Shown here: in pieces, positions 55,341 through 61,325 of the stretch | Position numbering within the stretch: position 1 is the first letter of the stretch | Layout: every line of letters starts with the position of its first letter | Source: a virus | Lineage: Duplodnaviria; Caudoviricetes | IMG/VR virus record: IMGVR_UViG_2838948833_000001 | Coordinates: 10,725 to 74,724 of that record | DNA length: 64,000 nucleotides | Reading direction: 5' to 3' (one strand) | Notes under the pieces: generated by a model | The model's input: the letters and a program-made list of their open reading frames with translations, nothing else | The model's database searches: none | Told to the model about the DNA's origin: nothing | Position numbers and translations under genes: made by a program

Positions 55341-55613
55341 TTAATCGATGATAATCCAATCTTCTGATAGAATATCACTTCCACTCGGAACCCACATAGC
55401 ATGATCGCCTTGAGCAGTTCTCAATTGAAAATAAGGTCTGACTTTAAATAAATCACCTTCTTTCAATCCCCAAGCTTCAGCAGTTTGCTTATTACATGGA
55501 ATGCCATCAGGATAACCTTTTTGCAAAACAGCAAACATTCCTTGTCCGTTCCATCCTTCTCTTGATACTTTCTTACCTTGTTTTAATGCTTCTAAAGCTT
55601 TTCCAAAATTCAT
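55341..55613 (-). CDS. DUF2829 family protein (Thoeris anti-defence Tad2-like)
   Basis: MNFG.ALEALK.GKKV.R.GWNG.GMF...W.PS..D.L.EDW. Confidence 0.88.
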   Translation of the reverse strand: MNFGKALEALKQGKKVSREGWNGQGMFAVLQKGYPDGIPCNKQTAEAWGLKEGDLFKVRPYFQLRTAQGDHAMWVPSGSDILSEDWIIID

Positions 55614-55620
55614 AGCAATT

Positions 55621-55797
55621 TTATTTAGGGTTATTTTTAATTCGCTCAATTATCGTATTGTATTCTTGAATCCATTCAGTAGGAACAGCCATTTCTGATT
55701 TGCGGTAACGAACAATAGCTTCTACTATTTCGGTTAGACGTTCGTTGTCCAATTCATTCTGCGTTCTTATTCCATAAGGAGGGGCTTGCTCTAACAT
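55621..55797 (-). CDS. Small hypothetical protein (58 aa, MLEQAPPYGI...)
   Basis: Read from sequence; fills the gap between rusA and DUF2829. Confidence 0.65.
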   Translation of the reverse strand: MLEQAPPYGIRTQNELDNERLTEIVEAIVRYRKSEMAVPTEWIQEYNTIIERIKNNPK

Positions 55798-56381: not shown

Positions 56382-56484
56382 CTAAGTAGTCAGGACTCGA
56401 ACCTGAACGTATTATATTCTGAATACCGCTATAATAAGCTATAATACCTCGGATAGTGCGTCTAACCAATTCCGCCACTACTTA
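56382..56484 (-). ncRNA. tRNA-Leu-like RNA with intact acceptor, D and T arms but a distorted anticodon arm (pseudo-tRNA)
   Basis: TAAGTAG/CTACTTA acceptor, TGGCGGAATTGGTTAGACGC D arm, TCAGG-TTCGAGT-CCTGA T arm; 103 nt. Confidence 0.7.
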
Positions 56485-56543
56485 CCATTACTTTTTACAG
56501 AAGCAACAAACTGGTTATTAACCAAAACCTATAATATGAATTG

Positions 56544-56617
56544 CAGTCTATACGAGATTCGAACTCGCGACCTCTTGCGTGACAAGCAAGCACTCTAGCC
56601 AACTGAGCTAATAGACT
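56544..56617 (-). tRNA. tRNA-Asp(GTC)
   Basis: AGTCTAT/ATAGACT acceptor, CTTGC-TTGTCAC-GCAAG anticodon arm, TTCGAAT T loop, G discriminator; no encoded CCA. Confidence 0.95.
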
Positions 56618-56732
56618 AAAAAAATGAAGTGTTTGTTTAAGAAAAAAAAGCCTTTCCTAAGAACGTCAATAAAGCAGATGAATACTTAATGATCAGAAAG
56701 GCTTTTTTAAAGGTTTGTTGTTTATTTAAAAG

Positions 56733-57041
56733 CTAGGTAATCCTAATTTTATCGCGAATGCAAATATCGACCTTGGATGCCGATGTGCCCAAATTTAGCG
56801 ATTTAGAGTAAGTATAAATATGTTTTTTATCAGGAAATATCCTGGGGACTAAAACATATTGCCTACCTACATAAGCTTTTAAATCCGCAGAAGCGAAAAC
56901 CGCATCCACTTTTACTACATCAGAAAAAGAAACAAGCTCTACTTTCTGTTTTGAATTTTCGCTCAGGTCTATTGTAGTCTTACAGATTCCCGCAATACTG
57001 AAGCATAACAGCATTGTAAAAAGCATAAACAAACGTTTCAT
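56733..57041 (-). CDS. Secreted hypothetical protein between tRNAs
   Basis: Start MKRLFMLFTMLLCFSIAG (signal peptide) a few nt after tRNA-Trp. Confidence 0.55.
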   Translation of the reverse strand: MKRLFMLFTMLLCFSIAGICKTTIDLSENSKQKVELVSFSDVVKVDAVFASADLKAYVGRQYVLVPRIFPDKKHIYTYSKSLNLGTSASKVDICIRDKIRIT

Positions 57042-57047
57042 AGTTTG

Positions 57048-57118
57048 CACGCAAGAAAGGATTCGAACCTCTGCAAACAGTTTTGGAGACTGTTGTGCTA
57101 CCACTACACCACATGCGC
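57048..57118 (-). tRNA. tRNA-Trp(CCA)
   Basis: ACAGT-CTCCAAA-ACTGT anticodon arm, AGAGG-TTCGAAT-CCTTT T arm, acceptor with one mismatch. Confidence 0.92.
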
Positions 57119-57125
57119 TTAAATA

Positions 57126-57250
57126 AAACCACTTGCCAGCCGTGCAATAAGGATGTCAAAAAGCCTCTTCAAAGCACCCTTGAATCTGCTATTACGATTC
57201 CACGTTGGTCTGTCATTACCTCAGCTAATCTAGTTAGCGACAAGTAGTTT
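57126..57250 (-). ncRNA. Putative structured small RNA abutting the 5' end of tRNA-Trp
   Basis: 12-bp closing stem AAACTACTTGTC/GGCAAGTGGTTT, internal hairpins, raised GC, no ORF; complementary to the terL and endolysin leaders. Confidence 0.65.
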
Positions 57251-57287
57251 AATTTTTATATACACAAATGCCAAAAATGTCAATGAT

Positions 57288-57593
57288 CTATTTCAAATAT
57301 TCCAAAGCCAATCGGTCATATAATTCGGAAGCAGTTTCAATTAACACCTCATCCCCTTTTTCGATTCGCCCAAAATTGCAGAAGAAACAATAGTGATCAA
57401 TTTCACTCAAGACTTCCTTTTGACCGTTAAAATGAAAAAGTACTATATCCTTAATCGCTTTCAACAAAAATGAGTTATCATAAACAGGCACCGTTGTTCC
57501 ATACAACTGAGTCAAACCATTTGAGATTTCATAATCTCGTGTCGTTTGCTCTTTTATCGATTCAATTACCAATACAAAGAGGTCCTTGTTCAT
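57288..57593 (-). CDS. Hypothetical protein
   Basis: Start MNKDLF; I..Y.F..NFG and ELYD.L motifs common in phage proteins. Confidence 0.7.
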   Translation of the reverse strand: MNKDLFVLVIESIKEQTTRDYEISNGLTQLYGTTVPVYDNSFLLKAIKDIVLFHFNGQKEVLSEIDHYCFFCNFGRIEKGDEVLIETASELYDRLALEYLK

Positions 57594-58151
57594 AATTTCA
57601 TTTTTGATACATGACAAATATATAAAACATTTTACACAATTACATAACAATCATATAAATTATTTTACACAAAAAATTACATGATTACATAAAATAGATT
57701 TTGAACTAAAGACAAACAAAAGAAAAGGCCGTTTTTAAGCCTTGAAATTATCAAAATGAGTATTCGGTTATTTGAAAGAAGAAAACCTCTTAGAAGTAAA
57801 GAAAAGGAGGTTAAATATTAAAATTGAGATATGGTAGTGTGTTTGGGATGGTATACATGTTTCAGAACGAACGGACCGCAAAAGGAAAACGCGATTAAAA
57901 AGGGTATTGGGGGTAGATTTGCATTTCAACTCAAAAACATTTTAGCTTTTTATATCCATGCATCCAAAGCTAATTTTAAGCAGCAACTAATTTCAACATT
58001 ATGTTTCTAGCTTTATCGATTATCCAGGATCTAAACTGCTGCAAAAGAAAACTGTAATCCTAGTATGATTCGAATCAAACAACTCAAACAACTGTAAAAC
58101 AACGCCTTAAGATTTCATTATTTAAAAGTTGCACAACCATTGCACAACTAC

Positions 58152-61112: not shown

Positions 61113-61325
61113 ATGTCGTTAAAAGAAGAAATTGCCCAAAAATTAAAAGCCCGCAGAATTGAACTCGGACTTACTATGGAGGAACTTGCAATACTCGTTT
61201 GGGGAGATCCTAAAAAGAGCGGGCAGATTTCCAATTATGAGAACGGAAAACGAGCGTTATCTCTCGATACTTTGGAGTTATTTTTGGAAGCTTTACAGAT
61301 GGAATTAATTTTAAAAAACAGATAA
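61113..61325 (+). CDS. XRE-family HTH transcriptional regulator
   Basis: LK.RR..LGLT.EELA.......IS.YENGKR..SL.TL. Confidence 0.9.
   Translation: MSLKEEIAQKLKARRIELGLTMEELAILVWGDPKKSGQISNYENGKRALSLDTLELFLEALQMELILKNR

Follow-up and report, generated by a model that had tools for sequence, protein, structure and literature searches.

The RNAC and RNAD RNAs of phage T4, also called the "species 1 and 2" RNAs, mature together with tRNAs, and in temperate phages the c4 RNAs of P1 and P7 and the CI RNA of P4 are matured by RNase P. GOLLD and ROOL, two further kinds of RNA, are about 500 to 800 nt in length. The eukaryotic nuclear long RNAs MALAT1 (with mascRNA) and MEN-beta carry a tRNA-shaped element downstream, which sets a 3′ end made by RNase P. 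One source on T4 describes two small RNAs of unknown role from the tRNA region (PMC3014915), and another describes GOLLD and ROOL as structured RNAs of unknown function that are often found near tRNAs and in prophages and are possibly co-transcribed (PMC5737381); the processed antisense RNAs c4 of P1/P7 and CI of P4 are cited in the reference list of a third (PMC3632133).

Here, we describe a predicted folded RNA gene of ~125 nt with six helices, located on the minus strand at positions 57126 to 57250 of a 64,000-nt stretch of prophage DNA (the window), directly before a tRNA-Trp gene. Like T4 RNAC and RNAD, this RNA is phage-encoded and tied to a tRNA gene cluster, but it differs from them in host phylum, in belonging to a temperate phage and in its fold; when the phage collection was searched by blastn with this region, tRNA(-Trp) matches alone were returned and no other similar DNA. 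With GOLLD and ROOL, it shares a position beside tRNAs in prophages, whereas its length of ~125 nt and the lack of an Rfam match at any threshold tried set it apart. The logic that we propose for it is the same as that of MALAT1/mascRNA and MEN-beta, except that the signal here would be a real, presumably functional tRNA and that cleavage is only proposed. The c4 and CI RNAs are small structured RNAs cut from an operon leader in temperate phages, as proposed for the window RNA; theirs is a loop-to-target pairing within the phage, whereas neither a conserved target nor an Rfam match was found for the window RNA. By sequence or fold, the RNA lies outside all of the known systems compared, and it represents a new family within a known, poorly understood kind, namely phage RNAs tied to tRNA genes.

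The window lies within a 4.3-Mb single-contig genome (contig positions 781095 to 845094). The region is a prophage, with genes for a portal protein, a large terminase, virion proteins and a tail-fibre-like protein at 28 to 51 kb, on the same strand, and with a repressor-like HTH gene at 61113–61325. The genes just downstream of the RNA encode a RusA-like resolvase, a Tad2-like protein and an RNase H/exonuclease-like protein. The Tad2-like protein (Thoeris anti-defence 2; 102 aa; 55341–55649, minus strand; Pfam, 91.5 bits) is encoded 1.4 kb downstream on the strand of the RNA, and the accessory region may be an anti-defence island.

Six homologues of the RNA were found, three of them on IMG/VR proviral contigs (L010, L011 and L064) and three in genomes whose record titles name Myroides odoratus (L044), Myroides sp. 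(L046) and an uncultured Flavobacterium metagenome-assembled genome (L039). L010 and L011 were found by using P0001, the ORF upstream of the RNA, as an anchor in IMG/VR, the more distant L064 by an alignment of P0001 homologues, and L044, L046 and L039 by scanning one genome per species with a sequence pattern. With a covariance model made from the first three sequences, these last three scored 143 to 160 bits and L064 scored 100.5 bits. Identity to the window over the RNA ranged from 98% (L044) down to 68% (L064), and since L010 and L011 are nearly identical, the seven loci represent about five distinct lineages. The RNA is present once per genome or record in all five checked (5/5). Because all seven loci are syntenic relatives, the link to a tRNA counts as one evolutionary observation and not as seven.

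Wider searches added no further members. A blastn search of 201 genomes of the family with the RNA and the promoter region gave matches at E ≤ 0.01 in eight, of which seven were fragments of 19 to 32 nt and not homologues. Searches with the covariance model returned a single genome out of 151 in the genus (the window's own), one out of 121 in what is apparently the same genus set (the centre genome itself), and one out of 151 in the family sampled at one genome per genus (again the window's own). In IMG/VR, an exact 25-mer had no matches; two patterns of 15 to 18 bases hit 16 and 13 stretches, among which the model fitted the two contigs already known and no others; the invariant pattern CCAACGTGG-N5-TAATAGCA recovered the three known contigs and none other; and a gapped pattern hit 50 stretches, among which the model fitted the known ones plus one 15-bit chance match. 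A pattern scan of metagenomes yielded 14 stretches and zero true matches, a result of little weight for metagenomes, as the pattern fits just 4/7 known members. The ESM Atlas gave zero usable matches with P0001. Cyanobacterial matches (L040, L042 and L043) were rejected as chance matches, as they lie in coding sequence and score 14.5 to 20 bits; within this coding sequence, the 21-base search pattern recurs in tandem at intervals of ~240 nt in L040 and L043 and occurs a single time in L042. As far as these sequence searches reach, the family is narrow, comprising one lineage of temperate Flavobacteriaceae phages.

Folded alone, the 125-nt sequence reached −34.6 kcal/mol (z = −2.04), with equally good folds in 6 of 200 shuffles; the single-sequence fold is thus modestly better than chance, which is suggestive but not proof. 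The alignment of seven sequences (A5) was fitted to the covariance model, which favours the structure, and gave a consensus of 37 pairs, comprising helices P1 to P6 and a weak apical helix. Standard pairs occupied 98.5% of the 259 pair cells, and 16 of the 37 pairs showed changes on both sides. Specifically, P1, P2, P5 and P6 each contained three or four double-changed pairs and P3 contained one. The covariation score was 0.453, compared with 0.222 in shuffles, with none of 500 shuffles reaching the observed values, and sliding the pairing partners by 1 to 3 columns as a control lowered pairing to 35–49%. An independent MAFFT/RNAalifold run on three sequences recovered the same 37 pairs, eight of them compensated and none broken. 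G-U pairs filled 23 of the 259 pair cells and would be A-C on the opposite strand, which places the RNA on the tRNA (minus) strand. Invariant columns made up 32 of the 52 unpaired positions and 35 of the 74 paired ones; conservation is higher in loops and junctions than in stems, a pattern seen in functional RNAs. None of the reading frames stays open across all seven sequences. At the level of sequence comparison, these data confirm a genuine folded RNA, with a predicted fold conserved in related prophages.

Read on the minus strand from 57250 to 57126, the RNA starts with AAACUACUUGUC and ends with GGCAAGUGGUUU. These two ends (57250–57239 and 57137–57126) form the 12-bp terminal helix P1, which contains two G-U pairs; all of its cells are paired, and four of its pairs carry two-sided changes and four carry one-sided changes. 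A helix joining the 5′ and 3′ ends, as P1 does, is common in stable RNAs. The remaining helices, all on the minus strand, are arranged around a four-way junction (P1/P2/P3/P4) and a three-way junction (P4/P5/P6). P2 (57224–57238) is a hairpin of 5 bp, GCUAA/UUAGC, with a 5-nt loop nUnGn, 100% pairing and three of five pairs changed on both sides. It is followed by J2/3 (57221–57223), which reads UGA but UGC in L064, and by the P3 hairpin (57207–57220), in which one of three base pairs changed on both sides and the loop AA(U)UGACA is invariant save for one insertion in L064. The invariant block CCAACGUGG (57201–57206) consists of J3/4 (AA) and the 5′ strand of P4 (CGUG), and a second invariant block, CACGGCUGGC (57138–57144), consists of the 3′ strand of P4 (CACG) and J4/1 (GCU); the four P4 pairs show zero variation in any of the seven sequences, so covariation is uninformative there. 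P5 (57182–57200), a fully paired hairpin of 5 bp (GAAUC/GAUUC) with four of its five pairs changed on both sides, encloses the invariant loop UAAUAGCA. P6 (57151–57179) has a 5-bp basal helix (97.1% paired, 4/5 pairs changed on both sides), a variable interior and an apex with a conserved GCU and a U-run, where the small helix 7 has weak support (85.7% paired, zero double changes). J6/4 (57145–57150) is UUAUUG but UUUUUU in L064. Three additional pairings were considered and rejected: the P5 loop with the P6 apex (73.8% paired, without covariation), UAAUAG of the P5 loop with UUAUUG of J6/4 (broken in L064), and the P6 apex with the arm of a downstream terminator (without compensation in L064).

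At its 3′ end, P1 (3′ strand, 57126–57137) runs into UUUUAUUU and then into the tRNA, and P1 and a U-rich run are present in 7/7 loci. The spacer between P1 and the tRNA is UAUUUAA (57119–57125, minus strand; 7 nt, U/A-rich), and the gene behind it, the proposed processing signal, is tRNA-Trp (CCA) at 57047–57118 on the minus strand, called by ARAGORN and by the Rfam tRNA model (64.2 bits). In six of the seven loci the spacer measures 7 nt, too short to hold a promoter of the tRNA's own, and in L044 it measures 17 nt; for L011, the distance runs to a tRNA-like gene whose first base was placed by eye. In all seven loci, the 3′ end of the RNA is followed immediately by a tRNA or tRNA-like fold. 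This is tRNA-Trp in five of them (the window, L010, L039, L046 and L064); L044 has tRNA-Leu(TAG) there, and L011 has a tRNA-like gene without an ARAGORN call. The RNA occupies the same position, at the head of the phage tRNA cluster, in every locus (7/7); it is the constant part and the tRNA behind it the variable part.

The initial annotation had drawn a ~125-nt multi-stem RNA ahead of tRNA-Trp, and this survives in a structure conserved on the tRNA strand in seven loci. Its 12-bp terminal stem with G-U pairs that work only on the minus strand corresponds to P1, with the G-U cells noted above; its hairpins GCUAA/UUAGC (57238–57224) and GAAUC/GAUUC (57200–57182) are both present as P2 and P5; and the distance of about 7 nt to tRNA-Trp is exactly 7 nt (57125–57119). 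Structural conservation in related phages, which it had named as a test, was found in homologues that keep the fold and score 100.5 to 160 bits with the covariance model. The proposed inner helix UGAGG..AUG.CAGA / UUUG.CAU.CCUUA did not hold up: 85.7% of its cells pair but with 0 double changes, and it is incompatible with P3 and P6, both of which covary. For the seed that this helix was thought to hide, likewise, no counterpart was found: the conserved loops had zero conserved antisense targets in the window and across the seven loci.

Upstream, the RNA is preceded by P0001 (57291–57593, minus strand), a 101-aa ORF of phrog_20973 with no assigned function that is syntenic in 7/7 loci. Just past its stop codon is a promoter-like element on the minus strand, with a −35-like hexamer TTGACA at 57278–57283 and, 17 nt further on, a −10-like hexamer TATAAA at 57255–57260, which ends 4 nt before P1. 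TTGACA is found in six of the seven loci and TTGATA in L064, and a TATA-rich hexamer follows in all seven, directly after the P0001 stop; the spacing is about 15 to 17 nt in 6/7 loci (17 in the window) and 13 nt in L046. A promoter scan missed the element because it demands a T at the sixth base of the second hexamer. TTGACA-N17-TATAAA is an E. coli-type element and not of the TAnnTTTG type, which is the consensus of the Bacteroidetes −7 promoter. The sequence TATATTTG is found at 57622–57615 on the minus strand, ~20 nt before the P0001 start codon; we take it to fit this −7 consensus, in contrast to the E. coli-type element before the RNA. TTGACA-N17-TATAAA would act as a promoter; arguing against the RNA having its own promoter are the TAnnTTTG-type element of the neighbour P0001 and the hexamer spacing of just 13 nt in L046.

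Two metatranscriptome runs of a synthetic community contained contigs 100% identical to the window, one covering 57053–57266 (tRNA and RNA) and the other 57139–57312 (RNA and the end of P0001). Contig depth was 2 to 9, without an increase at the RNA relative to the flanking sequence, and the libraries may contain carried-over DNA. The contigs show the presence of the sequence in RNA libraries only, not ends, strand or abundance, and the coverage gaps (57024–57052, 57104–57138 and other uncovered parts) and the depths are uninterpretable. Because one contig crosses the putative promoter, the RNA could also be the tail of the upstream mRNA. A third RNA library contained two diverged relatives (90–95% identity), in which the RNA core is replaced or diverged.

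Comparison with Rfam 15 placed the RNA in no known family. At gathering thresholds, the window gave two tRNAs alone (57047–57118 and 56543–56617), and at E-values up to 10 nothing credible overlapped the RNA; four homologous loci searched at E up to 1 and the L064 copy searched alone matched zero families. These results agree with the impression of the initial annotation that the element resembles no known riboswitch or ribozyme, and the Rfam hit to an unrelated known family that it had listed as counter-evidence was not found. DUF2693 RNA (RF02956) was rejected at 18.1 bits and E = 0.94, against a gathering threshold of 81.3 for a model of 165 positions; its alignment covers 57233–57288 only, that is, the promoter-like region, the P1 5′ strand and part of P2, and the match vanishes when the RNA is scanned alone. 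The element was also rejected as a tRNA or tRNA-like RNA, as it is without a T-loop sequence and ARAGORN and RF00005 call only 57047–57118 and 56543–56617. A related motif could be contained in the supplementary lists that accompany PMC5737381, though Rfam 15 should contain those motifs. Since a preprint ties arrays of noncoding RNAs in Bacteroidota prophages to UG27 reverse transcriptases (10.64898/2026.09.22.753630), we searched for a reverse transcriptase gene; the sole RVT_1 match in the genome lies at contig positions 1770307 to 1770681, ~0.9 Mb from the window, and a retron- or UG27-type template RNA was rejected.

We consider the best explanation, with a rough probability of 0.45, to be a stable small RNA that acts in trans and lies at the head of a tRNA precursor, its 3′ end being set by RNase P and its integrity protected by P1. 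Transcription would proceed on the tRNA strand, from the conserved TTGACA-N17-TATAAA element or else from the P0001 promoter, and would yield a precursor with the RNA at its 5′ end and the phage tRNA array behind it. Cleavage by RNase P at the 5′ end of the abutting tRNA would then release the RNA with a short 3′ tail, and the 12-bp P1, by pairing both ends, would protect the released product. The invariant loops and junctions (AAUGACA, CCAACGUGG, UAAUAGCA and CACGGCUGGC) would act in trans, with a protein or some other macromolecule as the most likely binding partner. A 3′ end set by RNase P, as the initial annotation had suggested, is plausible and consistent with the constant spacer of 7 nt in six of seven loci and with the retention of the RNA where the tRNA is replaced. 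Co-transcription, maturation by RNase P, stability and action in trans are each what we infer for this RNA.

The same arrangement could belong to a cis-acting leader of the tRNA array, the main rival reading, which we hold to be possible but doubtful. An attenuator- or riboswitch-like RNA of this kind would stop the polymerase before the tRNA by means of P1 and the U-run UUUUAUUU whenever its fold was completed or stabilised by a ligand or protein, and would otherwise permit read-through into the tRNAs and the genes beyond; in a variant, the leader would tune the processing of the tRNAs by RNase P. Consistent with a leader, the RNA is promoter-proximal and abuts the first tRNA in 7/7 loci, the 3′ strand of P1 enters a U-rich tract directly in all seven, and the conservation of unpaired columns (32/52 invariant) is aptamer-like. 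However, no conserved anti-terminator fold was found, the sole candidate being the inner helix with its 0 double changes, and the "terminator" would have to close 107 nt of structure on a weak base rich in A-U and G-U pairs, where the scan tool calls none. The U-run may be nothing special, since tRNA-Asp too is preceded by U-rich spacers, and it would be unusual for a metabolite sensor to occur in a single phage lineage only. A conditional gate on the phage tRNA supply, in which the RNA would be a sensor, P1 and the U-run would stop transcription before the tRNA array and the long block of same-strand genes behind it, and a cellular or phage signal would open the way, seems unlikely to us. If true, it would be the first riboswitch-like control of tRNA genes, and the leader, once released, might have a second role in trans, in a region that includes a Tad2-like anti-defence gene.

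It is very unlikely that the RNA belongs with the processed antisense immunity RNAs such as P1/P7 c4 and P4 CI, with loops that block downstream expression through targets in the same phage. The phage is temperate, has a repressor-like gene nearby at 61113–61325 and carries the RNA at the head of a long block of genes on one strand, and the conserved loops of the RNA are exposed, but the 64-kb window contains no stretch of 12 nt or longer that is complementary to the RNA, and the four 11-mer complements found there approximate the chance estimate (about 4). Complements of 7 to 8 nt to the loops of P3 and P5 lack a conserved position across the seven loci (TGTCAT is found in 4/7 only), the pairing of the P6 apex with the downstream terminator fails in L064, and Rfam gave zero matches, although it includes the C4 RNA family. 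Highly improbable, too, is a self-cleaving ribozyme that trims the tRNA precursor: the compact multi-helix fold, the invariant junction nucleotides and the position beside an RNA processing site would suit one, but no ribozyme family of Rfam 15 matched the RNA alone even at E up to 10, and RNase P already makes the cut that a ribozyme would supply. Least probable of all is a locus without RNA function, whether it folds by chance, acts as DNA or encodes a short protein, a reading for which the single-sequence z of −2.04 and the small family of close relatives can be cited and which is disfavoured by 16/37 double-changed pairs, 98.5% paired cells, strand-specific G-U pairs and the lack of a common open frame.

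The tRNA array behind the RNA contains other features, which we record as separate observations. A 102-aa ORF (56736–57041, minus strand) with an N terminus like that of a secreted protein or lipoprotein lies between tRNA-Trp and tRNA-Asp; it is kept in 6/7 loci and has zero Pfam or PHROG matches. Between this small secreted-protein ORF and tRNA-Asp, a large hairpin at 56642–56708 (minus strand; AAAAAAGCCUUUC ... GAAAGGCUUUUUUUU, with a loop of ~40 nt) is conserved in L010, L039 and L046, and a different hairpin takes its place in L064; the tRNA-Asp behind it is without an obvious promoter. The arrays also hold tRNA-like genes, at 56388–56483 on the minus strand of the window and at ~4127–4262 in L010, ~3478–3632 in L011 and ~7683–7890 in L044. 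These have a tRNA-Leu-like D arm (GGCGGAAUUGGU.AGACGC) and a normal T arm and acceptor stem, and an insert replaces the anticodon and variable region, the whole gene being about 96 to 208 nt long. ARAGORN calls none of them, the Rfam tRNA model gives at most 16 bits, and folding shows no clear anticodon arm; they may be intron-bearing tRNAs or tRNA mimics.

That phage tRNA clusters harbour extra small RNAs has been established for a long time. The putative stable small RNA defines a compact, covariation-backed family in a phylum other than those of the earlier RNAs of tRNA clusters (T4 RNAC/RNAD; GOLLD and ROOL). Because it sits in an accessory region by a Tad2-like gene, a role in anti-defence or host takeover is testable. 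Its clean layout, in which a promoter-like element, a folded RNA, 7 nt and a tRNA follow one another, makes it a tractable model for asking whether a tRNA can serve as the 3′-end processing signal for another RNA in bacteria and phages, and what role such RNAs play.
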